This document shows positions 1 to 21,971 of a stretch of DNA of 21,971 bases, piece by piece. How positions within the stretch are numbered: position 1 is the stretch's first letter; every line of letters begins with the position of its first letter. The notes beneath the pieces are model-generated. The model ran no database searches. It had not been told where the DNA came from and saw only the letters and a list, made by a program, of their open reading frames with translations. The DNA is taken from the IMG/VR virus record IMGVR_UViG_3300029593_000033. The stretch is one strand, 5' to 3'. The translations under genes were made by a program, and so were the position numbers. This DNA is from a virus.

Positions 1-90
1 ACCCAAATCATTTTTGAATGATGCTGAAGAAATTGTTCGTGGCAAGATAAATCATTTCTTGAATGAACAAAAAGCAAGAATGGAAGCTGA
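1..90. repeat. Terminal direct repeat: bases 1-90 are identical to 21882-21971. This is the signature of a circular assembly or a direct terminal repeat. Unit genome about 21,881 bp.
   Basis: Read directly: the first 90 nt (acccaaatcatttttgaatgatgctgaag...atggaagctga) recur verbatim at the 3' end of the window. Confidence 0.9.
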
Positions 91-502
91 AGCCCTTGCA
101 ATTAAACAAAAGGCGGAAGATGAAGCCTTGAAACAGGCTGAAGAACTTGAAGCCTTGAAACAGGCTGAAGAACTTGAAGCCTTGAAACAGGCTGAAGAAC
201 TTGAAGCCTTGAAATCGGGTGCGGGGGAATATGATGCTGTCACAAGGAAAGCAATGATTGAAGCAATTGAAGCAAAACAAAACAAAATCATTGATGCAAC
301 CGCAAAGCAAATGGAAATCAACCAATCTTCCGCAAATTCAGTTGTTCGCAAGGTTTGGGCTTTCCGCTTGACTGACTTGTCAAAAGTTCCTTTGCAATAT
401 CTTCAATTGAATGAAACTGCTGTTCGCAATGCAATCAAATCAGGTGAAAGAAACATTGCAGGCTTGGAAATCTTCCAAGAATGTCAAGTTGCTATTAAAT
501 AG
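2..502 (+). CDS. 3' part of the same plus-strand coiled-coil protein. It carries EALKQAEEL nonapeptide repeats. The C-terminal region (VRKVWAFRLTDLSKVPLQYLQLNETAVRNAIKSG) is unrecognised.
   Basis: Frame continuity with 21661-21971. Stop TAG at 500-502, then immediately GGGGGG and the ATG of the next gene. Confidence 0.6.
   Translation, partial: PKSFLNDAEEIVRGKINHFLNEQKARMEAEALAIKQKAEDEALKQAEELEALKQAEELEALKQAEELEALKSGAGEYDAVTRKAMIEAIEAKQNKIIDATAKQMEINQSSANSVVRKVWAFRLTDLSKVPLQYLQLNETAVRNAIKSGERNIAGLEIFQECQVAIK
119..214 (+). repeat. Perfect 27-bp tandem repeat (gaagccttgaaacaggctgaagaactt), about 3.4 copies, in frame inside the coiled-coil CDS.
   Basis: Read directly. The copies are identical at nucleotide level and encode (EALKQAEEL)x3. 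Confidence 0.9.
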
Positions 503-512
503 GGGGGTTATC

Positions 513-674
513 ATGGGAAGAAAGATTTTAAAAGATGATGAAAAAGCTGTTCGCATTACAATCACAATTGACAAGGCAACTGCTGAACTTGTGGAAAAAT
601 ATGCAAAGATTGAAATGTTGCCAATTTCAAGGCTGATTGCCCGAATACTTAAAAGGCATTTTGAAATGAAATAA
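513..674 (+). CDS. Ribbon-helix-helix (CopG/Arc/MetJ-like) DNA-binding protein of 53 aa. Candidate transcriptional regulator or antitoxin-like partner of the upstream gene.
   Basis: MGRKILKDDEKAVRITITIDKATAELVEKYAKIEMLPISRLIARILKRHF: an N-terminal beta strand with alternating residues followed by two helices. The RBS GGGGGG lies 3-8 nt upstream. The start is 10 nt after the upstream stop, so the two genes are translationally coupled. Confidence 0.55.
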   Translation: MGRKILKDDEKAVRITITIDKATAELVEKYAKIEMLPISRLIARILKRHFEMK

Positions 675-680
675 AAGAAA

Positions 681-709
681 GCCCCGCCATTCAGCGGGGT
701 TTCTGTTTA
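681..709. terminator. Bidirectional intrinsic terminator (CCCCGC-cattca-GCGGGG, then TTTCTGTTT). It sits between the convergent plus-strand module and the minus-strand lysis genes.
   Basis: A 6-bp GC stem with a 6-nt loop. T-rich flanks on both strands. Confidence 0.6.
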
Positions 710-883
710 CAACATATTACTTGAAGTCAAAATGAAAAAAATTTTTACTTTCGTTGCACATATTATCAATTGCATTTGCATTTGTCAAGATATGATTGAA
801 AGATTTTATCATTTGCAATATAGTCCCGCACTGTTTTTGGCTGTGGAATTCTTCCTGAAGTTATCGGGCAACAGGTCAAAGGC

Positions 884-1147
884 TTACTTTGGCAAGCACT
901 TTGAAACATCAAAATCAAGCACAAAATCACAATCTTTTTCATCACTTTTCAATTCCCTGTAAACAATCTTTATTTTTTCCGCTGTTTTTTCTTGCTCTGT
1001 GGTGTTTTCTTCTCTCTTTTGGTATAGTTGCACATCTTTCTTCAATTCTTCCTTCTGTGTGGAATTTTTTCCCGCTATAAATCCACCATAAAAAACAAGG
1101 CAAGTCCACAAAATAAAAAACAATAAACTTTTCAACCAATCCATCAT
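884..1147 (-). CDS. Lysis-cassette membrane protein, i-spanin-like. It has an N-terminal TM helix followed by a charged helical periplasmic part. The ORF track extends it to a TTG at 1234.
   Basis: MMDWLKSLLFFILWTCLVFYGGFIAGK..., then a K/E-rich tail. It lies immediately downstream of holin and endolysin. The internal ATG-ATG at 1147 has GGAAG upstream. Confidence 0.35.
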   Translation of the reverse strand: MMDWLKSLLFFILWTCLVFYGGFIAGKNSTQKEELKKDVQLYQKREENTTEQEKTAEKIKIVYRELKSDEKDCDFVLDFDVSKCLPK

Positions 1148-1283
1148 TTGAAAACTTCCACAATTGAAATCAGGGCTGAAAAGCCCTTTTCTGTATTTTC
1201 TGCCATGTAATATGTTATAAGTCCCATTGCCCAACTAATAATCCAAGGGGCAACCTTTGCCAATGCTTCTTTCATCTTTTCCA

Positions 1284-1703
1284 TTATTCAACCCCTATAT
1301 AAAACAAATGATTGCCAATCATAAAATCCGCCTTCTTTCCTTCCGCCCAACTTGGCTTCACATTTATTGTGTGATAATGACAAGCCCCGCAAAGAAAATC
1401 TTTTTCCTTACCATTCACAAAGTCTTCTGCAATTGTCAAGCATTCACCCAATTCAAGCATTGATGCATTCATAATCTTTTGGCGGTTTGGGTCGTTCTTA
1501 TTCCAACAAGAAAATTGCCAAGGCTTTTGGCATGTTTCCGCAATTGTTTTTCCTGAAAACCATTTTTTCGCCTTGTAGCGGTTCATAATAACACAAGCAA
1601 CCGCCTTTTTGCCTGCTGTCTTTTCCCCTCTTGCTTCGCCATAGATGGTGCGGGCAAGAATGTCAATGTCGTTTTCTTTCGTCATTGTCCAACGTCTCCG
1701 CAA
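1284..1703 (-). CDS. Endolysin: SleB/CwlJ-type cell-wall hydrolase (Hydrolase_2 family), single domain.
   Basis: Motifs ARTIYGEARGE, VACVIMNR and QFSCW are characteristic of this family. 139 aa with no binding domain. Overlaps the holin 3' end. Confidence 0.65.
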   Translation of the reverse strand: MRRRWTMTKENDIDILARTIYGEARGEKTAGKKAVACVIMNRYKAKKWFSGKTIAETCQKPWQFSCWNKNDPNRQKIMNASMLELGECLTIAEDFVNGKEKDFLCGACHYHTINVKPSWAEGKKADFMIGNHLFYIGVE

Positions 1704-1890
1704 GGTCTGCTTTTGCTCTTGCTTCCCTGATTTTGTAAATCAAGAAAACAACAGTCAATGCAAAAGTGATAAAGGCTTGGATTTCAGGCAAATGGGTGAT
1801 TATGAATGAACAAGCTGTTGCAAATAAACTTGCAATTGTTGTGTTTAGTGTGTCCCCTTGCATTATGTGCCAAGCCCCTTTCATTGCCAA
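1663..1890 (-). CDS. Class II-like holin: two TM segments and a charged C-terminus.
   Basis: TTIASLFATACSFIITHL and IQAFITFALTVVFLIY, then KIREARAKADLAETLDNDERKRH. Possible dual start (MAMKGAWHIM). Overlaps the endolysin by 41 nt. Confidence 0.55.
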   Translation of the reverse strand: MAMKGAWHIMQGDTLNTTIASLFATACSFIITHLPEIQAFITFALTVVFLIYKIREARAKADLAETLDNDERKRH

Positions 1891-1928
1891 TATTTCCCTT
1901 TCATTATATGAACAGAATTTTCACAAAA

Positions 1929-2213
1929 TCAAGCTCTTTTTTTGGCATACCATTTTTCTTTTGAATATTTCCCTGAATAGTCTTTATCATTCAAGAACAA
2001 ATATGCATGTTCAACATATTTTGAAACATCATCTTTATACATGGGGAAAAAGTCCGAATATACCATATTCATAGCATAATATACACCATTTTCAGAATAG
2101 CGGGCATTTGATGTTGGGTGTCCTGCATCTGCAAAAACCTTCAAAACAGTTTCTTTGTTCCATTTCTCACCCCTTACAAAACAGGTTCTTTTGAATGTAT
2201 CTGTCCAAGCCAA
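1929..2213 (-). CDS. Hypothetical 94-aa protein between the tail-fibre chaperone and the holin.
   Basis: ORF only. No motif recognised. Confidence 0.3.
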   Translation of the reverse strand: MAWTDTFKRTCFVRGEKWNKETVLKVFADAGHPTSNARYSENGVYYAMNMVYSDFFPMYKDDVSKYVEHAYLFLNDKDYSGKYSKEKWYAKKRA

Positions 2214-2563
2214 TTTTCAAAGCTTAAAACATCAACATTTGGAAATGCGGGGTCATCTGTAATGTTTCGCAAATATTTCCTATAAAGAAGCCAAAGTTCT
2301 TTTTCTTCTGCTGAAATAGGAAAATCGGGAAGCATGCGAATGTCTGAATCTTCCAAAAGGCGGTTTCTGTCCGCTCTTTTTTCTTCCGCCAATACTTCTT
2401 CAGGCTTTGCGGGGGCATATCCTGCCAAATACCAATTTCCCGCATAATCTTGTTCAACTTCCATTTCTTCCATGCCAATTGAAGCATAAAAATTGTTATT
2501 TGTTCCCAAGCCAACTTCACAAGCTTTGGTTTCTTCATTTATTATTTTTGCATATTTTTTCAT
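2174..2563 (-). CDS. Tail fibre assembly chaperone (Caudovirales Tfa / P2 gpG-like).
   Basis: The C-terminal motif LLEDSDIRMLPDFPISAEEKELWLLYRKYLRNI...FPNVDVLSFENW matches the conserved Tfa signature (SDw..lpD...W..YR..LRdi...fP). Lies directly downstream of the fibre gene. Confidence 0.6.
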   Translation of the reverse strand: MKKYAKIINEETKACEVGLGTNNNFYASIGMEEMEVEQDYAGNWYLAGYAPAKPEEVLAEEKRADRNRLLEDSDIRMLPDFPISAEEKELWLLYRKYLRNITDDPAFPNVDVLSFENWLGQIHSKEPVL

Positions 2564-2564
2564 T

Positions 2565-3635
2565 TTAATTTACTCCTTTGCAAGGGAAGAACATAAGTAT
2601 TTTCCCTTCACCCGTTAATTTATAATTATCTCCTTTAGAAAGTGGAAGCATTAATGCAACACCATGTGAATATTGTGCCTGCGTTGTCAAGTTTATAGAC
2701 ACACCATTTATTATTAAAACATTTGCTTTTGTAGCCCCACTATAATTATATAAAAGAAAGCCGTCAACCTCTGCGGTGTATTGAGTATTATTTGCCTTCT
2801 TAACCCCCGCACTATAATCAGGCATACCCCAACCAACAGAAGCTTCCTTGAAGCTTGAAGCAACACTTGCAACATTTGAAAGGTCGCTATTGGCTTTTAT
2901 ATTCAAATCTTCATAAACTTTGTTTATGTCAACCCCAACTTCTGCGGTCTGTCCTTCGGTGGATATTACCATATAATAAGGGTATTTTATATGGTCGGGC
3001 TGAACTTTTGCCCCCTCTTGGTAGGTGGGGTTATATGTTGTTAATGAAATATTTGATATTTGCGGTGAACTTCCATCCTTTCCAACCGTATTTCCATCAC
3101 CTCTTGCAAGTCCTGTCTTATCTGCTGTATGATTTCTATGCCACAATGAATTGCCTTCGCCACTTCCTGTTGTCTTAACATTTATATTAGGCAAGCTTTC
3201 CGCATAACTTTTTCCAATTTCTGAAAGTGTTATTGTTGCACCAATAAAGCGGGTTATTTTTGGGATTCTTACATAATCATTTGTAATGACAAATCGCCCG
3301 CATTGTCCATAAGCTGAAACATCTGAATTATATTCTTCTTCTGAACAAGAAAACCAATTGCCCGCTTGCACCTGTTCAACAACTTTATTGCAAAAAGCTT
3401 CATATGTTCCCTTTCTTGAAAGTGTTTTTCCGTCAAGTAAAGTGAACCTTTCATCACTTATTTTTCCAACTGCGGGAATAATGAAACCTGTCGGCAAGGA
3501 AGAACCCAACCATGCTTTTAATTGTTTCAAGGTCACCGCTTTTGTGTCCGTTGCTGTGTCAACAGGCAAAACCATGTCTGCCAATACTTCATCAGCAAGT
3601 TCCAATTGTGAAATTTGAATTTCTTCTGTTGCCAT
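2565..3635 (-). CDS. Tail fibre / receptor-binding protein with a phage tail-collar-like motif.
   Basis: LPTGFIIPAVGKISDERFTLLDGKTLSRKGTYEAF resembles the tail-collar domain (P.G.i....l.cdG..ls...y..Lf). 356 aa. Position after the baseplate genes. Confidence 0.5.
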   Translation of the reverse strand: MATEEIQISQLELADEVLADMVLPVDTATDTKAVTLKQLKAWLGSSLPTGFIIPAVGKISDERFTLLDGKTLSRKGTYEAFCNKVVEQVQAGNWFSCSEEEYNSDVSAYGQCGRFVITNDYVRIPKITRFIGATITLSEIGKSYAESLPNINVKTTGSGEGNSLWHRNHTADKTGLARGDGNTVGKDGSSPQISNISLTTYNPTYQEGAKVQPDHIKYPYYMVISTEGQTAEVGVDINKVYEDLNIKANSDLSNVASVASSFKEASVGWGMPDYSAGVKKANNTQYTAEVDGFLLYNYSGATKANVLIINGVSINLTTQAQYSHGVALMLPLSKGDNYKLTGEGKILMFFPCKGVN

Positions 3636-4159
3636 TATACTTTCCCTTCTTCATTTAAAGTGAATTCAACAAAAGTTCCCGCCTTTGTCGTTGCCTTTAG
3701 AATTTGAAGCAATTCCCTGTCGGTCACTTCTGCTAATATTTGTTTAAATATGATTGCTTTGCCATCTTTGGTGATGACTTGTTTTTTTGATTTTGTAATC
3801 CACAAATAAAACTTTTGAACAGGGGCAACAATGTCAATCTTCAAATGCAATGGTTCTTGTGTGATTGTGATTTTTGCTTCCCTGCCAAATATTGCATATA
3901 AAATTTTCAAATATGCTTCAACAGAACCCAAAGTTTTTTCACCCTCTAAAATTTGTGAATAAGCCTTCACAAACAATGATTTTTCCAAGGTCTTGTAAAT
4001 GGGCATCAATTGTTCTTCATAGATTATTCGCCCTAATTCGGGGCTTTGATATGCTGTTTTATAGTAATTTTCTATATCAAGCAAGGTTTGTTGTGCAAGT
4101 TTGGAATATATATCCCAAAATCTTTTTTCCTCTTGCTCGCCTGTTACAAATTGAACCAT
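3635..4159 (-). CDS. Baseplate protein, P2 gpI-like.
   Basis: Size (174 aa) and position after the J-like gene with start-stop overlap. Weak motif support. Confidence 0.35.
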   Translation of the reverse strand: MVQFVTGEQEEKRFWDIYSKLAQQTLLDIENYYKTAYQSPELGRIIYEEQLMPIYKTLEKSLFVKAYSQILEGEKTLGSVEAYLKILYAIFGREAKITITQEPLHLKIDIVAPVQKFYLWITKSKKQVITKDGKAIIFKQILAEVTDRELLQILKATTKAGTFVEFTLNEEGKV

Positions 4160-4971
4160 TAAATCACCTCAACTTCCACATCATCAGGGTTGATTGTGAA
4201 TTTTTCATCAAACATTGCTTCAAGAATATCTGTTTTATATTCTCCATTTGTCATGTAGCTTATATTTATTTCAGAAGCAAAAGGCAAATCCCTATCCCTG
4301 CACAAGAAAATTTGCGGTTCAAAATCAAATCCTAATCGGTAGAACTTCGCAAAATTTGCAAGGAATTTATTTTTTATTTCAGCAGGTGTTTCAACAAATA
4401 ATGTGCTATTTTCTGAAACTCTCACTTGAATTTTGATTTTTAAAGCTGTTTCAGAAGGAAGGTCAAATGCATAGTTGAAAACTTGCCCATTTGATGCGGT
4501 CACCTGTCCTTGTTCTGTTCCGTTATAGAATAAACCTGCCCCCATATTTTCATGAAGAATTTTGAATATTTGGGCTTTGCGGTCTTCATAATCATCAGAA
4601 GTGTTGTCAACATCAACCGCCAAGAATATTTGCCCCGCTTCGCTTTCATCTTCAATTCTTTTTATTGAAGAAACAAGCCCCAATTCATCTTTGATTATTT
4701 GCATGATGCCATCATAAGAACTGCGGGGAATGATTAAACTTTCATTTTGTGTTCTGATATAGTCTTGAAGTTTCACCCCAAGTTCTGCAATGTTGTTTTC
4801 AACTGTCATCAAGCCTTGAATGGTTGCATATAAGAATTTCCAAAGGTTTGTTCCTGTGAAGCTTTGGGAAGTGTAGCTTGTTCCAAATTGTTCATTCACA
4901 ACCTGAACACATTCTGCCAAAATTGTTTCATAGCTTCTTGGTGAATATCCGTTTGTCACTGTATATGTCAT
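4159..4971 (-). CDS. Baseplate wedge protein, Baseplate_J (P2 gpJ / T4 gp6-like).
   Basis: The N-terminal SYETILAECVQVVNEQFG...NLWKFLYATIQGLMTVENNIAEL pattern and the gene order W-J-I-fibre. Confidence 0.45.
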   Translation of the reverse strand: MTYTVTNGYSPRSYETILAECVQVVNEQFGTSYTSQSFTGTNLWKFLYATIQGLMTVENNIAELGVKLQDYIRTQNESLIIPRSSYDGIMQIIKDELGLVSSIKRIEDESEAGQIFLAVDVDNTSDDYEDRKAQIFKILHENMGAGLFYNGTEQGQVTASNGQVFNYAFDLPSETALKIKIQVRVSENSTLFVETPAEIKNKFLANFAKFYRLGFDFEPQIFLCRDRDLPFASEINISYMTNGEYKTDILEAMFDEKFTINPDDVEVEVI

Positions 4972-5273
4972 TGTGCAATCAATCCTTCCTTCTCTGCTTC
5001 CGCAACTGTATATTCAAACACTTGGCGGAATGTTTCTTTGTTTACAATCAATTCAATAGGGTTCACCCCTTGTTCACCCAACTTTTGAATGCTGTATGCT
5101 TCAAAGGTTCGGTTTTGTATTTTCACTTCAGGGTCAAGAAATCTTTTTAAATCAATCCCCAATTCAGGGGCATAGTTCAAAGAACCTTCCTGTGTTTCCA
5201 AGATGTTTTTTGCCTTGAAAACAATTGTGTCACTTGTCTTGAACTCTCCATTTTCAATGAAACCATCAATCAT
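4968..5273 (-). CDS. Baseplate wedge protein, gp25/GPW-like.
   Basis: 101 aa. NYAPELGIDLKRFLDPE resembles the gp25 P.fG..l..l.F.p motif. Position before the J-like gene. Confidence 0.4.
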   Translation of the reverse strand: MIDGFIENGEFKTSDTIVFKAKNILETQEGSLNYAPELGIDLKRFLDPEVKIQNRTFEAYSIQKLGEQGVNPIELIVNKETFRQVFEYTVAEAEKEGLIAQ

Positions 5274-5599
5274 TTCAATTTTCCCCTTAACTCATCAACC
5301 TGTTTTTTCAAATCTGTCAATTCTTGTGCAAAAGTTGGGCTTGTAATATCCCCGCCCATGTTGGCTTGCATGATGCCTGAAGCAATTGTGAATAAACTTG
5401 TGGATAATAATTGTAATGTTGTGGATAAATCAGGGCTTCTTTTGGGTATATAAACAAGTTCACCTTCAGCCATAATGATGAAACCTTCACTGTCCCCGCC
5501 TTCGCCCAAAATAGGGCAATCAACCACAACCCCGCTGTCTGCTGTTATCACTCCACCTGTTCTTTTTGCTTCAAATATTTTCATAAATGAACCTTTCAA
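5270..5599 (-). CDS. Small baseplate spike, gpV-like: an OB-fold N-terminus with a C-terminal coiled coil.
   Basis: GGVITADSGVVVDCPILGEGG...GELVYIPK resembles the Phage_base_V OB domain. C-terminal TFAQELTDLKKQVDELRGKLK. Contains two DnaA-box 9-mers. Confidence 0.35.
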   Translation of the reverse strand: MKGSFMKIFEAKRTGGVITADSGVVVDCPILGEGGDSEGFIIMAEGELVYIPKRSPDLSTTLQLLSTSLFTIASGIMQANMGGDITSPTFAQELTDLKKQVDELRGKLK

Positions 5600-8666: not shown

Positions 8667-8669
8667 CTC

Positions 8670-9599: not shown

Positions 9600-9600
9600 T

Positions 9601-10765: not shown

Positions 10766-10776
10766 GGTTCACCCCC

Positions 10777-11646: not shown

Positions 11647-11647
11647 T

Positions 11648-12213: not shown

Positions 12214-12216
12214 TTT

Positions 12217-15984: not shown

Positions 15985-15989
15985 TTTTT

Positions 15990-16040
15990 TGATGTTTAAA
16001 CCTGTTTAAATATAAAAGCAACTAAAAATAAAAATCAAGC
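15990..16040 (-). promoter_or_regulatory. Candidate late promoter. Minus-strand reading gives TTGATT, 17 nt, TTATAT. A GTTTAAACnnGTTTAAA direct repeat lies in the leader.
   Basis: Read on the reverse complement of 15990-16040. Located between the upstream terminator and terS. Confidence 0.3.
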
Positions 16041-16071
16041 ATAAAAAAGAAGGGGCGGTGTTTCCCCTTCC
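16041..16071 (-). terminator. Intrinsic terminator for the minus-strand early/middle operon.
   Basis: GAAGGGG-cggtgttt-CCCCTTC stem-loop followed by a 7-nt U tract on the minus strand (A7 at 16042-16048). Lies 22 nt after the MazG-like stop. Confidence 0.65.
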
Positions 16072-16092
16072 TTCTTCCTTTGGTCTTCCTGT

Positions 16093-16506
16093 TTACTCTT
16101 TGTTGGTGTGGTGAAATTTTCCATCGCCTGACTTTTTCCAAACTCTTTTGCGGTTTATCTTCATTTTCTTTTGAACCTCACCCAATAAACAGCCTAACAA
16201 TTCAAATGGCATGTCTTCAGCAAATTTGTTTTCAAGATGTCTTCCAACATGGCTTTCCCATCTTCTCAATCCACCAAGAACAATGAACACATCTGCAAAT
16301 TCTTTCATCTTGTCTTCTTCTTTTGCTTCTGAAAGTTCTTTGAACTCTTCTTCCAATTTGGCAAGTTGTCCGCTCAAAGTAGCATCAGGAAAGGTTTCTT
16401 CATTCCATTCCTTTATTTCTTCAAGTTCCAAGTGAAAAGCACTTAAAACAATTTCTTTTATTTCTTTTTCAATCTTTGTGTTTCTTTTATTAAATAATCC
16501 AAACAT
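16093..16506 (-). CDS. MazG-like nucleotide pyrophosphohydrolase (DUF550-like).
   Basis: Pattern EEIKEWNEETFPDATLSGQLAKLEEEFKELSEA...EFADVFIVLGGL, typical of the MazG/dNTP-PPase helical core. Confidence 0.4.
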   Translation of the reverse strand: MFGLFNKRNTKIEKEIKEIVLSAFHLELEEIKEWNEETFPDATLSGQLAKLEEEFKELSEAKEEDKMKEFADVFIVLGGLRRWESHVGRHLENKFAEDMPFELLGCLLGEVQKKMKINRKRVWKKSGDGKFHHTNKE

Positions 16507-16519
16507 TTTTTCTTCCTTT

Positions 16520-16837
16520 CTAATGAATAAAAATCAAACATAAAATCCAAAACAAAACAAAAATCAATCTCAAAAACCAATCTTTCTTTGATGATTTTCC
16601 CTTTTTTGCTTTTTCATGAACTTCACAACATTGTGAACATGCCTTTCTATATGCTTTCTCAAGGTCAAGGGCTTTCAACAAATTGTTTGTGAATTCGCTT
16701 GTGATGGGCTTTTGTCCCTGTTCAAGCTTCTGAATGTAGGTTTCAGAATATCCAACCAAGCCCGCAAATTCTGCCTGTGTCATTCCTTTCCTTTTCCTAA
16801 TCTTCCGCAATTTTTCAATTGTCAAAATCTCTTTCAT
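16520..16837 (-). CDS. XRE/Cro-type HTH regulator with a Cys cluster and a C-terminal hydrophobic tail.
   Basis: LRKIRKRKGMTQAEFAGLVGYSETYIQKLEQGQKP is a classic HTH_3. Then CSQCCEVHE, a K-rich linker and FLRLIFVLFWILCLIFIH. Confidence 0.55.
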   Translation of the reverse strand: MKEILTIEKLRKIRKRKGMTQAEFAGLVGYSETYIQKLEQGQKPITSEFTNNLLKALDLEKAYRKACSQCCEVHEKAKKGKSSKKDWFLRLIFVLFWILCLIFIH

Positions 16838-17027
16838 TCTTTTTCACTCCCTCTTCAATTTTAATAATATTGTTTTTTATGGTCAAAAGGTTGGCAAAAT
16901 CAACCGCAATTCTGAAGCTGTCATATTCACCACCCATTTCAATGATATAGTCCTTCTTTTTCCCTGTTGGGTCTTTGTAGATATTCAAGAAGCACCCTTT
17001 CTTTTTATTCATCATCAGTTCTTCCAC
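16815..17027 (-). CDS. Hypothetical 70-aa protein.
   Basis: ORF only. Confidence 0.3.
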   Translation of the reverse strand: MEELMMNKKKGCFLNIYKDPTGKKKDYIIEMGGEYDSFRIAVDFANLLTIKNNIIKIEEGVKKNERDFDN

Positions 17028-17583
17028 CCATTAAAATATATTCTGCAATAAATTCTTCATTTTGCTTCATTCCTCGCATTTTATGGTCACCAAGCAAGAA
17101 TGTATGCATTGAAGGAAAACCCAATTTCACAAGGGCTTTTCCCAATTTATTTGCTAACATAGGATTGAAAGCAATTGTTCCTTGTTCCTTTACTTCTACA
17201 CCCCAAACATCAGGCATTTTTTCAAATTTTAATATTTCAGGTTGTTGAAAACTCAATGTGAATGGTCTTTCATTATAAAATGTTGCAACAGTTCCAACCA
17301 ATGCATCATCTGAAAAAATTGTTGCATTCATTACATGATTTTCTTCTTTTTTGTTATACTTCAAAACTTTTTTTAATAAAACAGGAATTTGCAAAACAAA
17401 ATTTCCTTCAAAATTAAAGTCACCTTGTGTTGGATACACTTTCAAGGCAATATGTCCATCAGTAGCAAAGAAAACAGGGCTTTCCCCTTCTTCACCAAAT
17501 ACAAATATATTGTCTAAATCTCTATCATTTCCCGCAATTTCAGCAAGTGCAAGAATTATTCTATTGTCAACAGTTATTTCCAT
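17005..17583 (-). CDS. Hypothetical 192-aa early protein. A replication or recombination role is possible but unsupported.
   Basis: ORF. No motif recognised. Confidence 0.35.
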   Translation of the reverse strand: MEITVDNRIILALAEIAGNDRDLDNIFVFGEEGESPVFFATDGHIALKVYPTQGDFNFEGNFVLQIPVLLKKVLKYNKKEENHVMNATIFSDDALVGTVATFYNERPFTLSFQQPEILKFEKMPDVWGVEVKEQGTIAFNPMLANKLGKALVKLGFPSMHTFLLGDHKMRGMKQNEEFIAEYILMGGRTDDE

Positions 17584-17585
17584 GA

Positions 17586-17798
17586 TTAAATTTCCTTTAC
17601 ATATAAATATTTTTTAAACCTTACATCATCACCAAATCTGTTTGTTCTGACAATCCATTCATCATTGATGATATGTTTCTTTCTTAATACAAATATAATT
17701 GCAGAAAGCCTTGTTGTCCCATATTCTGTGAAGGCTTCAAAACTTGTGATGCTTTTATATTGCTTTAGGTGTCGCAACACTTCCGCTTGTAATGTCAT
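17586..17798 (-). CDS. HTH_39-like winged-helix DNA-binding protein (70 aa).
   Basis: VLRHLKQYKSITSFEAFTEYGTTRLSAIIFVLRKKHIIN matches the vL..L...gsiT.lEA....g.tRLsArI.dLRk.G..I consensus. Strong RBS AGGGAAGGA before ATG 17798. Confidence 0.55.
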   Translation of the reverse strand: MTLQAEVLRHLKQYKSITSFEAFTEYGTTRLSAIIFVLRKKHIINDEWIVRTNRFGDDVRFKKYLYVKEI

Positions 17799-18015
17799 TT
17801 TTTCCTTCCCTTTCAAAATTTTCTTCATTGAATAATGTTTTCAGGGCTTTATTCACCCGCCCTGTGGGTTTGTAATTGTCAACAAATACCCCAATGGGTA
17901 AACTGTCAACAAACATCAATTCATCTGTGAAATATACCACATCAAGGATTTCTGAAGCCCTCAAAACAATCACTGTTTCGCCCCATTCACTCTTGAATTC
18001 TTGTCCCTCTCTCAT
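17755..18015 (-). CDS. Hypothetical 86-aa protein.
   Basis: ORF. GGTGGTGA RBS before ATG 18015. Confidence 0.35.
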   Translation of the reverse strand: MREGQEFKSEWGETVIVLRASEILDVVYFTDELMFVDSLPIGVFVDNYKPTGRVNKALKTLFNEENFEREGKNDITSGSVATPKAI

Positions 18016-18105
18016 GCTTCACCACCATTTCAATAATTTCAAACAATCTTTCCAAACCTTCAACAACAACTTTTTGTTGAAATCTTTTTATTTCAGTTTC
18101 ATTGT

Positions 18106-18342
18106 TCACTTGGTATATATAAAGAAACTTTTGGTCATTTCTTGCCAATTTTCCAATGTGTCCGAACTTTTTTTTCCGTTGTTATCAAATACATTTTTTC
18201 TCCTCTCGTATTCTTCAACAATTTCTTTTGTTGGCTCTATCGGGCAAATGAACTTGGTTTCATAATCGTTTTCACCATAGGTCTTGCCAATTGCCCAAAC
18301 TTCACCATCTTCATCATATCCTTTGAATATTGCTGTTTTCAT
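18106..18342 (-). CDS. Hypothetical 78-aa protein. Contains an A9 homopolymer in its coding sequence.
   Basis: ORF from internal ATG 18342 with GGGGA upstream. Confidence 0.3.
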   Translation of the reverse strand: MKTAIFKGYDEDGEVWAIGKTYGENDYETKFICPIEPTKEIVEEYERRKNVFDNNGKKSSDTLENWQEMTKSFFIYTK

Positions 18343-18343
18343 G

Positions 18344-18550
18344 TTACCAAATCCCCAATATTTTTGTTTCAACCAACAACAAAGCAAATAAAATCATAAA
18401 ACATTCAGTTTTTGTGAATTTCTTCACCATTTTTTCGCCTTGATGCCATCTTCTTTGAAATGCTTCCCATTCTTCATTTGTGAAGCCTTCTTCCTTTACT
18501 TCGTGCCATTTTCCATTGATTGCATCTTGTGTATATTTCTTGAATTCCAT
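18344..18550 (-). CDS. Hypothetical 68-aa protein with a C-terminal hydrophobic segment.
   Basis: ORF from ATG 18550. C-terminus CFMILFALLLVETKILGIW. Confidence 0.3.
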   Translation of the reverse strand: MEFKKYTQDAINGKWHEVKEEGFTNEEWEAFQRRWHQGEKMVKKFTKTECFMILFALLLVETKILGIW

Positions 18551-18551
18551 T

Positions 18552-18869
18552 TTAACATTCCCCCAAAAGTTCAATAATTGCATTTAAAACATTTTCATTT
18601 TCAATCAAAGAATAAAAAGTTTCATAATCAGCATTTTTCAATTCTTCAATCAATTCATCTTTTGCATCTTCAAAGGCTTGGTCTTTATCTTGCAAAACAT
18701 CATCACGAACACAAACAGAACCAACACCAACATCAACAAAATCTTTGTCATGCCCTTGGTAATATTTACCCCCGCAACCTTCATTCAAATCTAATTCAAG
18801 CAAATTATCCCTTCGCTTTATTATCTCACCCCGCAAGGCTTCAACAAATACATTCTTCAAATTTTCCAT
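18552..18869 (-). CDS. Small highly acidic protein (105 aa, about 26 D/E against 12 K/R/H).
   Basis: Composition counted from the translation. It is the second gene of the operon after the promoter at about 19360. Confidence 0.4.
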   Translation of the reverse strand: MENLKNVFVEALRGEIIKRRDNLLELDLNEGCGGKYYQGHDKDFVDVGVGSVCVRDDVLQDKDQAFEDAKDELIEELKNADYETFYSLIENENVLNAIIELLGEC

Positions 18870-18892
18870 TTTTCCTTCCTTTCTTATGTTGA

Positions 18893-18913
18893 AGGGGCGG
18901 GGTTTCCGCCCCT
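18893..18913. other. Perfect 8-bp GC hairpin (AGGGGCGG-ggttt-CCGCCCCT) between the first and second genes of the operon.
   Basis: Read directly. On the minus transcript it has no U tract, so it is not a canonical terminator there. On the plus strand it is followed by a T-rich segment. Confidence 0.5.
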
Positions 18914-18918
18914 GTGTT

Positions 18919-19299
18919 TTAATACTTCGCCAACATTTCCTTCATAAATTTTGCATCTTTTCCTTCTGCTTCATATTCTTTGATTGTTTCTTCAATTGCC
19001 TTTTTCATTTCCGCTTTTTCTTCTTCGCTGATTTTTGGGGCTTCAGGCTTTTTCAACTTTTCACCTTTCATATTTTCACCCCTGAAAAAATGTGCAACTT
19101 CTTCATCAGTCAAAAAGCGAATTCCATTCATTGCCAAGAAGTCTTTGTTCACCTTTGCTTCTTCATAAGAAACAAAAACCAAATCTTCTTTTGTGCAATT
19201 TAAACCACCTTGACAATGTGGGATTAATGCACCTTTAGTGTTTAACATTCTTACAACACCACCATTGCAATCAATAACATTTCCAATATATTTTTTCAT
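18919..19299 (-). CDS. Hypothetical 126-aa protein. It is the first gene after the duplicated early promoter.
   Basis: ORF with an acidic/K-rich C-terminus. Confidence 0.35.
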   Translation of the reverse strand: MKKYIGNVIDCNGGVVRMLNTKGALIPHCQGGLNCTKEDLVFVSYEEAKVNKDFLAMNGIRFLTDEEVAHFFRGENMKGEKLKKPEAPKISEEEKAEMKKAIEETIKEYEAEGKDAKFMKEMLAKY

Positions 19300-19324
19300 T
19301 TTGATTTCCTTTCATATCTGTTGA

Positions 19325-19395
19325 ACATATCTATTATATACACCATATATTTTTAAAAGTCAACATATTTTTTCATATTTTTTCATATTTATTCA
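19325..19395 (-). promoter_or_regulatory. Sigma70-like promoter on the minus strand: TTGACT, 17 nt, TG-TATATAAT. Upstream are two phased ATATGAAAAAA repeats. This 30-bp module is near-identical to the one at 21566-21598.
   Basis: The reverse complement of 19325-19395 reads GTGAATAAATATGAAAAAATATGAAAAAATATGTTGACTTTTAAAAATATATGGTGTATATAATAG. Confidence 0.55.
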
Positions 19396-19422
19396 CAATC
19401 AAAACAAAAAGCCTTGGTTTTC

Positions 19423-19632
19423 TTACATTTTCAACCTTTCAATAATTCGGTCAAATGCATCTTTGTCCCAATGGTCATTCTTAAGTCTTTTCAATTCTTC
19501 AATGGTTTGCATGTTTAAATAAATCACATCTCTAATCCCTTTTTGATAGCCTTCACCAAAAGACTCTGTTTTTTCATAGTTGAACCATTGCTTTTTCATT
19601 ATAACTAAATTAAATATTTTTATCTTTTCCAT
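19423..19632 (-). CDS. Hypothetical 69-aa protein.
   Basis: ORF only. Confidence 0.3.
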   Translation of the reverse strand: MEKIKIFNLVIMKKQWFNYEKTESFGEGYQKGIRDVIYLNMQTIEELKRLKNDHWDKDAFDRIIERLKM

Positions 19633-20045
19633 TTGTTTTTCCTTCCCTCGTTTTCATAGCGGTTTCCCAAAAGTTCCAATTTCACATCATCTTCATTCAA
19701 ATATGAATAAGGAATTTCAATCTTTCCTGCATCAACCCGCAAGATGAAACCGCCCATGTTGTTGAACCATTTTATAATTCCATTCACCTTGTTGATGTGG
19801 TCAAAAACATAATCTTCTGCATATAGAGGTTTCCCCTTGATGTCCTTTTGTCCTGTCCACATGTTTATTTCAACAAAGTTCTTTCTTCTCCTGTCCTTTT
19901 GGTTGATTTTCTTTTTGTAGTGGGTCAAATTACCTTCTTGGTCTAATTTATACCCCTTGAATGCAAACTTTGTGAAAACTTGTCTGCCCCCAACTTTTTT
20001 GAACTCTGCAATTCTGAACATTTTCCCTTCCCTAAAAAATGCCAT
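19620..20045 (-). CDS. Hypothetical 141-aa basic protein. The start is uncertain because the ORF overlaps the upstream gene by about 100 nt.
   Basis: ORF. No motif recognised. Confidence 0.3.
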   Translation of the reverse strand: MAFFREGKMFRIAEFKKVGGRQVFTKFAFKGYKLDQEGNLTHYKKKINQKDRRRKNFVEINMWTGQKDIKGKPLYAEDYVFDHINKVNGIIKWFNNMGGFILRVDAGKIEIPYSYLNEDDVKLELLGNRYENEGRKNKWKR

Positions 20046-20386
20046 TTCATCAAATCCATCACTCTTTCATATTGCCCGCTTCTTCTCCATAATGCAAGGG
20101 CAAATTCTTCAGGTTTCACAATTCCATGTTTTTGAAAATATGCTTTGTCATTTCCAAAGGCATGTGCTTCCGCATGATGCTTTGGGCAAACAGGCAAACA
20201 AAACCTGTCATCTGACTTTGTTCCCATTCCCTTTGATTTCACCTTTGGAAACATCAAACCTTCTGTTTCTTTGGTTGCTGTCAAATATTCCCTATCAACT
20301 CGCAACAAGTGATGATGTGTGCTTTCATATCTTCCACATACAACACAAGGCAAGCTGTCAATGAATTTCAAGTGTTTTTGTGTCAT
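19943..20386 (-). CDS. DUF968-like Cys/His zinc-binding protein (putative HNH-like nuclease).
   Basis: LPCVVCGRYESTHHHLL...KSDDRFCLPVCPKHHAEAHAFG matches the CxxC...HHH...C.P.C..HH..H pattern of DUF968 prophage proteins. Confidence 0.45.
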   Translation of the reverse strand: MTQKHLKFIDSLPCVVCGRYESTHHHLLRVDREYLTATKETEGLMFPKVKSKGMGTKSDDRFCLPVCPKHHAEAHAFGNDKAYFQKHGIVKPEEFALALWRRSGQYERVMDLMKWHFLGKGKCSELQSSKKLGADKFSQSLHSRGIN

Positions 20387-20390
20387 CTTC

Positions 20391-20561
20391 TCAACTCTCC
20401 ATGATTTTCACAAATGTTTTTTCTGCCTGCAACTTTCCTTCAATCATTGCTTTTGCAAACATTCCCCCATTTTCTTCAATAGCTTCAAGCAAAGTTTTAT
20501 ATACTTTGATTTTGATTTTTGCTTCTTCAATCATCTGTTTTTTCTTTTCTTCTGTCTTCAT
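20391..20561 (-). CDS. Small 56-aa helical, K/E-rich protein. Its ATG lies 2 nt after the exonuclease stop.
   Basis: ATG at 20559-20561 on the minus strand, with AAGGGGA upstream inside the exonuclease 3' end. Confidence 0.35.
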   Translation of the reverse strand: MKTEEKKKQMIEEAKIKIKVYKTLLEAIEENGGMFAKAMIEGKLQAEKTFVKIMES

Positions 20562-20562
20562 C

Positions 20563-21498
20563 TTACATTTCCCCTTGTAATAATTCATAAGACGACTGCG
20601 GGAAGTCCGCATCTGTGAAAATAAGGTCTTCCGCACCAACTTCAACATCTTGAAGCCATGCTGACTTTGAACCGAATTTTTCCATGTATTCTTTGAAGAT
20701 GTTTTCCGCCTGTGCAATCTGCTTTTCACCTAATCGCCAAAGGTCGGGGCATCTATCCTTCAAAAACACCTTCAGGGCTGTTTGTGGCAATTCTCTATTC
20801 ACAAAAACCGCCATTGTCATCAAATCTTCTGTTCCCCTCATGGATTCCCAAAAGACAATCTGTTCATCTGTTCCATAAACAGGCAATTCACTATTCAAAG
20901 CAAACAAAACCGCTCTTTTATAATATATCAATTGAAGGTAAACCCTGAAACTGAAAAAGTATTGTGAAACAAAGCTTGCAAGCGGGCTTTTTTTCGTTTT
21001 CAAGAATGTTTTCAAATCCAAGATTGAATTTTGTTTCAGGTAGTCAATGCGGGCTTTTCTCTTGATGCCGTCTTCAGTCCAAAAGATTGAAACTTCAGGG
21101 AAACCGCCTTGAAATATATTGCAATCAAGCAATTGCCCTTCTTCTTTCAAATATTCGCAAATCAAATTGAACTTCTTGAATTTTGCCTGTGAAATCACTT
21201 CCAATGTTTGGGCTGATTTCCAAATCCTGTATTCTGAACAATTTTTGTTCAATACCTCTATTTCAGGCGGTGTGACTTTGAATTTGTTGTGGAAATTTTC
21301 GCCTTCCAATATCATTGCATGAAATATTTTGCCATCTGTCATTGCTTCGCTTGGCTTTTCTTCCCGCAATGGGTTCATGTTTGAATTGAACCAATAAAAT
21401 GTTGGGTTGTCTAATATGTCCCTAATTCCTGAAGAACTCAATCTTTTCTCATTGTGATAAACTTCATCAGGCAAATTGAAATATATTCCATCTTCCAT
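20563..21498 (-). CDS. RecB-family PD-(D/E)XK exonuclease (RecE/Cas4/DUF3799-like).
   Basis: Motif I GKIFHAMILE, motif II RIDYL, motif III ILDLKT and the QxxxY motif YLQLIYYK. The N-terminal YH...LSSSG is typical of phage RecE-like proteins. GAGGTG RBS. Confidence 0.6.
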   Translation of the reverse strand: MEDGIYFNLPDEVYHNEKRLSSSGIRDILDNPTFYWFNSNMNPLREEKPSEAMTDGKIFHAMILEGENFHNKFKVTPPEIEVLNKNCSEYRIWKSAQTLEVISQAKFKKFNLICEYLKEEGQLLDCNIFQGGFPEVSIFWTEDGIKRKARIDYLKQNSILDLKTFLKTKKSPLASFVSQYFFSFRVYLQLIYYKRAVLFALNSELPVYGTDEQIVFWESMRGTEDLMTMAVFVNRELPQTALKVFLKDRCPDLWRLGEKQIAQAENIFKEYMEKFGSKSAWLQDVEVGAEDLIFTDADFPQSSYELLQGEM

Positions 21499-21529
21499 TT
21501 TTGCACCTCAAAATAATGTTGAAAACAAA

Positions 21530-21563
21530 TCCTTTATAATTCCCATTTTTTTAATTGTCAACA
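21530..21563 (-). promoter_or_regulatory. Early promoter on the minus strand: TTGACA, 17 nt, TATAAA. It drives the exonuclease operon.
   Basis: The reverse complement of 21530-21563 reads TGTTGACAATTAAAAAAATGGGAATTATAAAG. Confidence 0.55.
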
Positions 21564-21565
21564 CC

Positions 21566-21620
21566 TAATATGAAAAAATATGAAAAAGTATGTTGACAAA
21601 TTAAAACAATTAGTGTATAT
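21566..21620 (+). promoter_or_regulatory. Early promoter on the plus strand: phased A-tract repeats ATATGAAAAAATATGAAAAAG, then TTGACA, 17 nt, TG-TATATA. It drives the coiled-coil/RHH operon and diverges from the minus-strand promoter.
   Basis: Read directly. The two -35 hexamers form a 9-bp inverted repeat TTGTCAACA / TGTTGACAA 27 bp apart. Confidence 0.55.
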
Positions 21621-21660
21621 ATTAAAATGTATTTAATTTTTAACATGGAAGGAAAACACA

Positions 21661-21971
21661 ATGAAAGATTTTCAAGCAATAGTTCAGCCCATTGAAATCA
21701 AAGCAAGGGTTTATCTCAACAAAATGAATGAAGCCAAAATTGAAAATGAAGCTGACAAGGAAAATGCGGTGATAATGTTGAAAGAAATTTCTGACTATAA
21801 AAAAGCAATAAAGAAACAGGAAGATGAACTTTCATCAGATGCAAAGAAAGAACTTGCAGAAATAAAGGCAATGTTTAATGAACCCAAATCATTTTTGAAT
21901 GATGCTGAAGAAATTGTTCGTGGCAAGATAAATCATTTCTTGAATGAACAAAAAGCAAGAATGGAAGCTGA
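21661..21971 (+). CDS. 5' part of a 240-aa plus-strand coiled-coil protein. The ORF continues in frame into bases 2-502 across the circular junction. Function unknown. It is the first gene of the plus-strand early transcript.
   Basis: ATG at 21661 is preceded by GGAAGGAAAA and by a sigma70-like promoter (TTGACA 21592-21597, 17-nt spacer, TATATA 21615-21620). The reading frame is continuous with ORF 14..502 via the terminal repeat. Confidence 0.6.
   Translation, partial: MKDFQAIVQPIEIKARVYLNKMNEAKIENEADKENAVIMLKEISDYKKAIKKQEDELSSDAKKELAEIKAMFNEPKSFLNDAEEIVRGKINHFLNEQKARMEA
21882..21971. repeat. Second copy of the 90-bp terminal repeat (the same sequence as 1-90).
   Basis: Exact identity with bases 1-90. 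Confidence 0.9.

Follow-up and report, generated by a model that had tools for sequence, protein, structure and literature searches.

A closed 21.9-kb genome that probably belongs to a phi1402-like dwarf contractile-tailed phage

The window, by which we mean the whole 21,971-nt stretch of DNA analyzed here, raises the question of whether so short a sequence can be the complete genome of a phage with a contractile tail and, if so, how such a phage replicates. Our analysis points, with a probability of roughly 85%, to a genome that is complete at 21,881 bp, was assembled as a circle and belongs to a dwarf contractile-tailed phage resembling Bdellovibrio phage phi1402. The phage probably comes from the mammalian gut and probably infects a diderm bacterium; metagenome-assembled genome (MAG) bins conflict on the host, pointing to Gastranaerophilaceae for a relative with 93% TerL identity and to Acutalibacteraceae for a 79% relative.

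Genome closure and layout

End comparison shows that positions 1–90 are 100% identical to positions 21882–21971, which leaves a unit of 21,881 bp once the terminal identity is removed. A 240-aa plus-strand open reading frame (21661..502) runs unbroken across the resulting junction, which is also crossed without interruption by a 96.6% identical IMG/VR contig of 23,525 bp (L004). Because these three observations coincide, we regard the genome as closed, as the sequence-only reading had proposed. The terminal identity itself most likely reflects a circular assembly path rather than a physical terminal repeat, because related assemblies break elsewhere and one of them has a k-mer-sized overlap: in a 25,417-bp MAG contig, the break point lies inside the large terminase gene and the ends overlap by 141 bp, which is the k-mer size in that contig's name. 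We therefore consider it unlikely that the 90 bp are a true short direct terminal repeat on linear virion DNA with fixed ends and T7-type packaging. The nuclease domain of the large terminase does weakly match a T7-type RNase H-like domain (PF22530, 0.011), and its distant tblastn matches include many T7-like phages of Yersinia, Escherichia and Salmonella, but the repeat sits within a conserved ORF and the break points differ as described.

The genome carries about 45 genes at a coding density of 95%. About 43 of them lie head to tail on the minus strand, from 21498 down to 884, beside a small divergent plus-strand cassette. This cassette, the terminal identity and two related promoter/operator-like elements are located as follows.

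1–90 (same as 21882–21971): terminal identity from circular assembly, within the p240 gene
21661–21971, plus strand (continues at 91–502): 5' part of the p240 gene, encoding a 240-aa coiled-coil protein
513–674, plus strand: candidate Arc/CopG-like ribbon-helix-helix repressor (phrog_582 Arc-like repressor, 1.3e-5)
21567–21624, plus strand: promoter/operator-like element upstream of the cassette
19332–19389, minus strand: twin promoter/operator-like element upstream of the gene at 18919–19299

The p240 protein matches phrog_10477 over its full length (3e-5) and has neither a PDB match nor an informative homolog; its gene also adjoins the exonuclease gene in Dulem virus 29 and in a further related contig (L011). 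The two promoter/operator-like elements are near-copies in opposite orientation, forming a 58-nt inverted repeat that is 83% complementary, and the one at 19332–19389 consists of tandem AATATGAAAA repeats followed by TTGACT, 17 nt and TATATA. Together, the Arc-like repressor cassette and the paired elements suggest a simple early switch rather than integration-based lysogeny.

Head, tail and lysis genes

The packaging and head genes are on the minus strand, and head and tail genes follow the order given in the sequence-only reading.

15547–15984, minus strand: helix-turn-helix (HTH) protein in the small-terminase (TerS) position
14297–15550, minus strand: large terminase, TerL (phrog_38, 2.4e-40)
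13345–14310, minus strand: putative portal protein, 321 aa (PF06381, 5.9e-4, under the curated cut-off)
12824–13348, minus strand: Mu F-like minor head protein (PF04233, 5e-5; 24.4 bits against a 29.6-bit cut-off)
12217–12834, minus strand: scaffold-like acidic helical protein
10777–11646, minus strand: putative major capsid protein, 289 aa
10035–10505, minus strand: neck/tail-completion protein (phrog_222, 9.4e-6)

Sequence matching makes the identity of TerL firm. The capsid, portal and TerS calls draw on sub-threshold matches and on homologs annotated by others: TerS is assigned by position, with HTH matches and weak TerS PHROG matches (0.02–0.04); the portal homologs are annotated as such in Dulem virus 29 and Vibrio phage 1.190.O; and the putative capsid protein has no Pfam or PHROGs family match, but its homologs in Dulem virus 29 and MAC3UK carry a capsid annotation. 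Homologs of the neck protein are likewise annotated as neck proteins, and the scaffold-like protein, recognized by position and composition, is kept in relatives. The module had been described as a full lambda-order head module. It is indeed complete, but SPP1/Mu-like is the better label, because the portal is followed by a Mu F-like minor head protein, a scaffold and the capsid protein, and no head protease was found in the module.

The tail and lysis genes follow downstream.

8670–9599, minus strand: contractile tail sheath, 309 aa
8241–8666, minus strand: tail tube candidate, 141 aa
7710–8257, minus strand: tail assembly chaperone pair (ORF 7889–8257 with a −1 frame extension, 7710–7907)
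6800–7759, minus strand: tape measure protein, 319 aa (phrog_1272, 3.3e-4; phrog_13674, 0.007)
5270–6800, minus strand: four putative baseplate hub-region proteins (177, 88, 174 and 109 aa)
4968–5273, minus strand: gp25/W-like sheath-initiator candidate, 101 aa
4159–4971, minus strand: gp6/J-like baseplate wedge protein, 270 aa
2174–4159, minus strand: putative I-position wedge protein (174 aa), putative tail fiber (356 aa) and tail-fiber assembly chaperone (129 aa; phrog_4912, 3.9e-10)
884–2213, minus strand: lysis cassette with a DUF7841 protein, a two-TM holin-like ORF (1663–1884), a SleB-type endolysin (1284–1703; PF07486, 1.9e-18) and an Rz-like spanin (884–1234; phrog_8821, 3.1e-4)

Structure prediction supports a contractile tail module at two points, both of which the sequence-only reading had named. 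The AlphaFold (AF2) model of the sheath (pLDDT 84.7, pTM 0.84) retrieves by Foldseek only contractile sheath proteins among its best 38 PDB matches (E to 6e-7); against BFVD, the best match (1.9e-26) is followed by named tail sheaths. The protein is also 37–39% identical to its counterparts in phi1402/MAC3UK and Dulem virus 29. Similarly, the best 33 PDB matches to the AF2 model of the 4159–4971 product (pLDDT 81.5) are all baseplate or contractile-injection-system entries, and the model matches only wedge proteins of the gp6/J type, including T4 gp6 (3h2t), Pam3 (1e-10), Bas63, PhiTE, XM1 and E217.

The remaining tail calls are graded more cautiously. The tube protein, located between sheath and chaperones and kept in 12 relatives, has no match in Pfam or PDB sequence searches; it and the gp25-like protein are candidates on the basis of position and weak matches. 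The gp25-like protein, encoded directly upstream of J, matches phrog_43 at 0.027, without significance, and phrog_43 matches two of six scanned members of its family, this product among them (best 2.5e-4). The hub-region proteins are named from synteny and conservation, their genes sitting where Mu and P2 have those for the tube initiator, an X-like protein, the hub and the spike; Pfam and PHROG scans gave no family matches, and sequence methods confirmed neither the spike candidate (5270–5599) nor the gp25-like protein. Position and variability among relatives suggest the I-position and fiber assignments. The chaperone pair has a nine-T slippery run at about 7892–7900, and a T9 or A8–A10 homopolymer with a 33–65-aa extension in the −1 frame occurs in 17 of 17 related loci. 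The weak PHROG matches of the 319-aa protein, together with the position of its gene directly after this frameshifted pair, support its designation as a short tape measure, as previously suggested. Its relatives span 319–331 aa, and at 0.15 nm per residue it would specify a tail of about 48 nm.

Relatives and their tails

Relatives of 20–25 kb, for which the sequence-only reading had proposed a search, include phi1402, MAC3UK, Vibrio phage 1.190.O and Dulem virus 29. The genome belongs to a known, unclassified group typified by phi1402 and is not a new kind of virus. Synteny from TerL to J, at 25–55% identity, extends to these phages and to MAG contigs, and long contigs of relatives cluster at 21.8–31.5 kb. 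Relatives with larger genomes or contigs encode ERF, DUF1351, a loader of the DnaC type or a repressor resembling CI. The description of the phage as unusually compact is thus accurate, but the compactness is not new, since cultured relatives of 21.8–23.9 kb share the gene order. Indeed, phi1402, whose genome is 24 kb long and whose virion is only about half as large as that of T4, has been described as a myovirus and as the smallest independent one (PMC3391216).

The closest annotated record is Dulem virus 29 (PP511380, 23,551 bp, lemur feces), a gut-derived and likewise circularly assembled genome with 54% identity in TerL, 39% in the sheath, 51% in the gp25-like protein and 40% in the J-like protein. 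Both genomes have the exonuclease, DUF968, YopX, the p240 cassette, the CopG/Arc-like gene and the SleB-type endolysin, but that of Dulem virus 29 is longer by 1.7 kb, encodes a 541-aa I-position protein and a tail-collar protein, differs in its small early ORFs and lacks a homolog of the 192-aa protein described below. Phages phi1402 (NC_015721, 23,931 bp) and MAC3UK (OR167113, 23,804 bp) have their genes in the same order between TerL and the J-like protein, at identities of 39–40% (TerL), 37% (sheath), 29% (capsid) and 31% (J-like); they also have a homopolymer frameshift site, a 330-aa tape measure and genomes below 24 kb. They differ in host and habitat, show no nucleotide-level similarity, have nothing detectable in common in their early regions (MAC3UK encodes a 380-aa 'putative SSB' where our phage has a RecE-like exonuclease) and carry a sheath of 426–437 aa with an extra inserted domain, compared to 309 aa here.

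Much more distant are the cultured Vibrio phages of the Nahant Collection, all typed 'Myo' and similar in size to our phage: 1.190.O and 1.166.O (21.8 kb; 1.190.O, at 21,785 bp (PMC6029569), is a partial record) and 1.155.O and 1.259.O (28–29 kb). Their head–neck–sheath order is the same, and their sheath homolog, annotated as tail sheath by Virfam, is 32% identical, but TerL identity drops to 28%, most tail proteins are undetectable by tblastn and Erf plus NinG replace the RecE-like exonuclease.

At a broader scale, P2-like and Mu-like phages and R-type pyocins share the order sheath, tube, frameshifted chaperones, tape measure, hub proteins, spike, W/gp25, J, I, fiber and fiber chaperone, and the predicted structures of sheath and J superpose on those of pyocin R2, Mu and other simple baseplates. 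Sequence-level membership in these groups is nevertheless lacking: the tail proteins have no significant match to a Pfam tail family, and a scan of 60 tail-module proteins from 10 genomes, covering nine post-neck tail families, gave none either. Compared to P2 and Mu, the genome is about 10–15 kb smaller, its proteins are systematically shorter and it has no P2 gpA-type initiator, Mu transposase or integrase.

Early region, replication and lifestyle

The early minus-strand region encodes the following recognizable proteins.

20563–21498, minus strand: RecE-like 5'–3' dsDNA exonuclease (PD-(D/E)XK), opening the leftward early operon (phrog_412 exonuclease VIII, 3.8e-31; PDB 3h4r RecE, 6.6e-7)
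19943–20386, minus strand: DUF968/HNH-type zinc-finger nuclease-like protein (PF06147, 3.5e-10; phrog_96 HNH, 3.3e-9)
19620–20045, minus strand: YopX-family protein (PF09643, 1.4e-4, slightly under the curated cut-off; phrog_98, 2e-6)
17586–17828, minus strand: small winged-helix DNA-binding protein (PF14090 HTH_39, 3e-7; phrog_4973, 2.7e-13)
17005–17583, minus strand: 192-aa protein of a very narrow family
16520–16837, minus strand: XRE-type HTH regulator with a hydrophobic C-terminus (PF13560, 1.8e-11)
16093–16506, minus strand: candidate MazG-like nucleotide pyrophosphohydrolase (PF04447, 2.3e-4, under the curated cut-off; phrog_4826, 6.6e-7)

The 192-aa protein has 11 representatives among 1.84 billion proteins and no match in a PDB sequence search. 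It has weak motifs that occur in the same order as in DnaN domains II–III and in DnaN-like phage proteins of 192–193 aa (pairwise profile comparison by hhalign, P about 0.002–0.08), and it is possibly a beta-clamp-like factor.

Pfam and PHROGs were both searched with the longer ORFs, and one of the two libraries with about a dozen short ones, which covered all but three very short ORFs. As the sequence-only reading had noted, these scans detected no polymerase, primase, helicase, loader, initiator or integrase above noise; the sole replication-family name was a 69-aa ORF matching a 299-position polymerase PHROG (0.011). In a six-frame search, TerL held the only Walker A motif within a real ORF, and no ParA/ParB, Rep, second P-loop protein or annealing protein was identified. 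Roughly ten small early ORFs are orphans, among which an unrecognized initiator could hide. That the phage depends entirely on host replication had been deduced rather than observed: no replicative enzyme was detected, but the early region does carry DNA-metabolism genes (RecE-like exonuclease, DUF968/HNH, YopX, MazG-like and possibly clamp-like). We infer a scheme in which the DNA would circularize or recombine after entry and the exonuclease would work with an annealing partner or host RecA, possibly joined by the clamp-like protein in feeding host Pol III. Pol III would then drive recombination-dependent or rolling-circle synthesis, yielding concatemers for TerL to cut.

Two other lifestyles can be considered. 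The phage could be a temperate element that persists unintegrated, either as a plasmid-prophage or in a carrier state, with the p240/Arc-like cassette as a maintenance and immunity module and an unrecognized plasmid-type initiator and origin. The cassette does occupy the usual site of a lysogeny module, complete with its ribbon-helix-helix repressor and the twin promoter/operator elements, the genome assembles as a circle, and Elusimicrobia contigs of 68 kb and 688 kb contain more distant relatives, one with a CI/LexA-type repressor. We nonetheless find this reading doubtful, given that the scans found neither integrase nor partition, Rep or second P-loop proteins, that p240 has no informative homolog and that phi1402, MAC3UK and the Vibrio relatives are cultured phages isolated on their hosts. 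A non-autonomous element, either a helper-dependent satellite or a tailocin- or GTA-like particle producer needing another replicon, would explain the very small genome and the absence of a recognizable initiator or polymerase, but is highly improbable for a genome with genes of its own for terminase, portal, capsid, neck, a full tail, fibers and lysis. An autonomous phi1402-like phage agrees better with the 21.8–23.9-kb relatives of like architecture, which are sequenced phage isolates from single host strains, and with the recurrence of a discrete packaged, circularly assembled DNA unit in many independent samples.

Genome closure and gene content

The element is essentially what the sequence-only reading made of it: a real and complete contractile-tailed phage, very compact, in which no enzyme of replication or integration can be recognised. 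The first 90 bases of the window are identical to the last 90, so that the non-redundant unit measures 21,881 bp, and the claim of a closed genome that had been drawn from this identity is borne out at the junction itself. A 240-amino-acid open reading frame on the + strand (p240; 21661..502) runs uninterrupted through it, a 96.6%-identical IMG/VR contig of 23,525 bp (L004) is collinear through it, and a related 25,417-bp MAG contig is broken elsewhere, inside its terminase gene, its ends overlapping by 141 bp, as long as the k-mer in the contig name. For these reasons, the map closes and the window is no fragment, and the 90-bp overlap is best explained by an assembly path that closed on itself; nothing certain follows from it about the physical ends. 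Within p240, a 27-bp tandem repeat in four copies (89-221) encodes repeated EELEALKQA heptad-like units, a coiled-coil segment.

The genome holds about 45 genes at a coding density of 95%, transcribed leftward throughout except for a small + strand cassette; no tRNA genes were found in the window. Sequence methods name only part of this content.

Table. Genes named by sequence methods, with their support
Large terminase (TerL; 14297..15550, − strand): firm; phrog_38, 2.4e-40
SleB-type endolysin: firm; PF07486, 1.9e-18
RecE-like exonuclease: firm; phrog_412, 3.8e-31; PDB 3h4r, 6.6e-7
DUF968/HNH protein: firm
XRE regulator: firm
Winged-helix protein: firm
Tail-fibre assembly chaperone: firm; 3.9e-10
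Portal: weaker but coherent; PF06381, 5.9e-4
Mu F-like minor head protein: weaker but coherent; 5e-5, below the Pfam cut-off
Neck protein: weaker but coherent; phrog_222, 9.4e-6
Tape measure: weaker but coherent; PHROG, 3.3e-4
Rz-like spanin: weaker but coherent; 3.1e-4
Arc-like repressor: weaker but coherent; 1.3e-5
MazG-like protein: weaker but coherent
YopX: weaker but coherent
Holin-like ORF: two TM segments, directly upstream of the endolysin

The presence of a spanin gene points to a diderm host; host assignments from MAG bins conflict. Antisense over the 3' end of the spanin gene lies a 76-amino-acid ORF (732-962, +) of odd Cys- and Ser-rich composition, which is doubtful as a gene.

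The contractile-tail module

The tail genes considered here are the following.

8670-9599, sheath, 309 aa
8241-8666, tube candidate, 141 aa
7889-8257, ORF between the tube candidate and the tape measure
6800-7759, tape measure, 319 aa
5270-5599, protein in the spike position
4968-5273, gp25/W-like candidate
4159-4971, gp6/J-like wedge

The sheath, tube, baseplate and wedge calls had been proposed from sequence, and predicted structures decide two of them. The AlphaFold2 model of 8670-9599 (pLDDT 84.7, pTM 0.84) was compared with the PDB by Foldseek, and all of the top 38 matches are contractile-tail or contractile-injection-system entries with sheath-sized matched chains (E to 6e-7, probability 1.0, TM 0.55-0.62), including phage 812, pyocin R2, PVC, AFP, Streptomyces CIS, PhiTE, Bas63, Mu and T4. 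Against BFVD, the best match is F6LQD4 (426 aa; 1.9e-26), unnamed in the search output, whose accession and size suggest that it is the phi1402 homologue; proteins named tail sheath follow it. For the model of 4159-4971 (pLDDT 81.5), all of the top 33 PDB matches are baseplate or contractile-injection-system entries whose chains are gp6/J-sized wedge proteins (E to 1e-10), from Pam3 (1e-10), Bas63, PhiTE, XM1, E217, P1, T4 gp6, AlgoCIS, PVC and diffocin. At the level of modelled folds, both main calls are settled, with 8670-9599 as the predicted contractile sheath and 4159-4971 as the predicted gp6/J-type wedge.

The window sheath is shorter than every matched PDB or BFVD sheath, all of which have 330 residues or more. 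The homologue in the Bdellovibrio phage MAC3UK (L001:11344-12657) has 437 residues, ~130 more than the 309 of the window protein, and tblastn splits the alignment of the two into separate segments, two in number; an internal insertion probably accounts for the additional residues. Gut and Vibrio versions of the sheath (309-319 aa) are without it.

The module is nearly invisible to sequence profiles. None of the sheath, tube, spike, gp25-like, J-like and I-position proteins matched a Pfam family, and the sole PHROG match among these six was that of 4968-5273 to phrog_43 (0.027), which is not significant. Profiles built from diverse homologues of the sheath, tube, gp25-like and J-like proteins found nothing among PDB sequences, and when 60 tail-module proteins, taken from the window genome and nine relatives, were scanned with Pfam, none matched a tail family. 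Two of six scanned members of the gp25-like family, the window protein included, match phrog_43 (best 2.5e-4), and the window protein has no Pfam or PDB sequence match; 4968-5273 is a candidate gp25-like protein with slight sequence support. In a relative with 79% TerL identity, the gp25-like domain forms the C-terminal 100 residues of a 412-residue protein (L008:12172-13407) with an N-terminal extension of ~310 residues. The tube candidate is a conserved 141-residue ORF in the expected place that matched nothing in Pfam, PHROG or PDB sequences, and the tube, spike and hub proteins are candidates by position only. Neither Pfam nor PHROG models recognise the tail proteins, so an annotation pipeline that does not search by structure will miss this morphotype.

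A frameshifted chaperone is a classical feature of long-tailed phages. ORF 7889-8257 terminates in AAG GTT TTT TTT TGA, after which the -1 frame is open for 65 codons. The same arrangement recurs at this place in 17 of 17 related loci: a slippery homopolymer, either T9 (in the window, 7889-7900) or A8-A10, falls where the chaperone ORF ends or no more than ~40 nt from that point, and the -1 frame stays open for a further 33-65 codons. ORF 7889-8257 and its -1 extension form the classical chaperone frameshift, upstream of the tape measure. At 0.15 nm per residue, the 319-residue tape measure would correspond to a tail of ~48 nm.

The early region and replication genes

Both Pfam and PHROGs were searched with the longer ORFs, one of the two with about 12 short ORFs and neither with three very short ones. 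No scanned ORF rose above noise in these libraries for a polymerase, primase, helicase, helicase loader, initiator, partition ATPase, transposase or integrase. Two matches remained below threshold, one of a 69-amino-acid ORF (19423-19632) to a 299-position polymerase PHROG (0.011) and one of the HTH protein in the TerS position (15547..15984, −) to a transposase PHROG (0.004). A six-frame search for Walker A motifs found the terminase alone among real ORFs. Within the reach of profile methods, the claim that the genome encodes no polymerase, primase, helicase, initiator or integrase therefore holds. The early operon does contain recognisable genes: the RecE-like exonuclease comes first, followed by the DUF968/HNH protein and YopX. 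The junction-spanning p240 matched nothing among PDB and phage sequences beyond Dulem virus 29; its identification as DUF1351, which lies beside ERF in an Elusimicrobia relative, was rejected when BLASTP gave no similarity.

The largest orphan early protein (17005-17583; 192 aa) belongs to a family with 11 representatives among 1.84 billion clustered proteins. Its conserved motifs (R-x-LN, FATDGH, KF-x-x-PDV, FNP and a C-terminal M-x-x-R) follow the order of DnaN domains II-III, and also that of DnaN-like proteins of 192-193 residues in Salmonella phage CF-SP1 (L052:341-922) and Vibrio phage 1.250.O (L053:344-922). Pairwise profile comparison (hhalign) gave weak collinear matches (P 0.002-0.08), and a search of PDB sequences was negative, so we keep a putative relationship to DnaN as a lead and not as a finding.

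It is conceivable, if rather unlikely, that the gut lineage approximates a minimal autonomous contractile-tailed phage (~45 genes, a 309-residue sheath and a Pfam-invisible tail) that replicates without an initiator, helicase or polymerase of its own. Its RecE-like exonuclease would act with the 192-residue protein, as a truncated beta-clamp-like factor that captures host Pol III on recombination intermediates, in an uncultured gut diderm, for example one of the Gastranaerophilales. The small members of the lineage share the absence of a recognisable replication initiator, a question testable on cultured relatives.

Four intergenic elements may bear on early control.

21567-21624, 58-nt element ahead of the + strand cassette of p240 and the Arc-like ribbon-helix-helix (RHH) repressor candidate (513..674, +)
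19389-19332, near-copy (83%) in opposite orientation, ahead of the leftward gene 18919-19299
18893-18913, GC-rich hairpin after gene 18919-19299
16049-16070, GC-rich hairpin between the early operon and the packaging genes

Each 58-nt element is promoter-like and consists of two tandem AATATGAAAA repeats, then TTGAC(A/T), 17 nt and TATATA. The pair came from a repeat search and not from a generic sigma-70 scan, which showed no enrichment over shuffles (20 sites vs 19.9 expected). These elements may be operators for the Arc-like repressor. The hairpins are strong; they lie between transcription units in a genome of otherwise 36% GC and are likely terminators or processing sites, and twin elements and hairpins together look like a small repressor-controlled early switch. 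Across the early region (17500-20000), GC skew is -0.35 to -0.42, markedly more negative than in the structural genes, and GC content, at 32-34%, is lower than theirs.

Relatives and placement

Whole-genome megablast against 50,697 phage records gave no nucleotide-level match, the best protein identities to described members are 54% or lower, and nucleotide similarity places the window in neither the species nor the genus of a described phi1402-like member. Protein searches lead to a clear family: Dulem virus 29 from lemur faeces (23.6 kb; TerL 54% and sheath 39% identical to the window), the Bdellovibrio phages phi1402 and MAC3UK (23.9 and 23.8 kb; TerL 39-40%, sheath 37%) and the Nahant Vibrio phages 1.190.O and 1.166.O (21.8 kb) and 1.155.O and 1.259.O (28-29 kb). 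All share the gene order of the window from TerL to the J-like gene, and ~16 of the 22 window ORFs in this interval have MAC3UK homologues by tblastn, in the same order and at 25-41% identity. The 21,881 bp of the window compare with 21,785-23,931 bp for cultured phi1402-like members. A prolate capsid has been reported for phi1402. This phage has been described as a myovirus (PMC3391216); Dulem virus 29 has been noted as phi1402-related (PMC11281440), and 1.190.O is listed at 21,785 bp as 'Myo' and Virfam-unassigned (PMC6029569). A literature search found no mention of MAC3UK. In the NCBI taxonomy, all these relatives are unclassified Caudoviricetes.

Other affiliations fare less well. P2-like phages (Peduoviridae) resemble the window in gene order only, and the P2-family test gave no significant Pfam or PHROG match to sheath, tube, W, J or Rep/gpA families; for a Mu-like phage with its MuA/MuB transposase pair, no significant MuA-type match was found. 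As for an integrating temperate phage, there was no integrase family match in the scanned ORFs and no CI-type repressor, the Arc-like RHH protein and the XRE HTH protein being the only regulators present. A CI/S24 (CI/LexA-type) repressor does occur in one distant relative. Of the more distant relatives, which are embedded in Elusimicrobia contigs, one carries ERF, DUF1351, a DnaC/IstB-like loader and a ParB-methylase; in another, this CI/LexA-type repressor is accompanied by an AAA_24 ATPase and a PD-(D/E)XK nuclease. Because these relatives have them, the lineage can carry loader and lysogeny genes; the window genome is without them. Two relatives with TerL identities of 45-46% lie inside large bacterial contigs (L016, Elusimicrobiales, 688 kb; L014, Avelusimicrobium, 68 kb) and are probably integrated prophages of Elusimicrobia; the fetched flanks contain no integrase. 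The window is a divergent new phage of the known phi1402-like lineage, not a new kind of element, and its novelty is probably at the level of a new genus.

With it, an unclassified and little-studied lineage that includes the smallest known contractile-tailed phages gains a complete and well-resolved genome. Genomes of this kind set the minimum size at which a capsid and a contractile injection machine are encoded together and are therefore useful for minimal-tail engineering and structural work. The main remaining interest lies in the minimal size of tail parts, a tail module unseen by sequence profiles and the mechanism of replication.

The sequence-only reading had proposed a search for relatives of 20-25 kb, and both cultured phages and metagenome contigs answer to it. 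In animal-gut metagenomes the lineage is common and accounts for hundreds of contigs of 21.8-31.5 kb, the sizes reached by IMG/VR relatives with TerL identity of at least 39%. Metagenomes hold 714 detectable sheath homologues; the best-scoring 120 clusters are 69-98% identical, and their long contigs are mostly ~20-28 kb, with two of ~46 kb.
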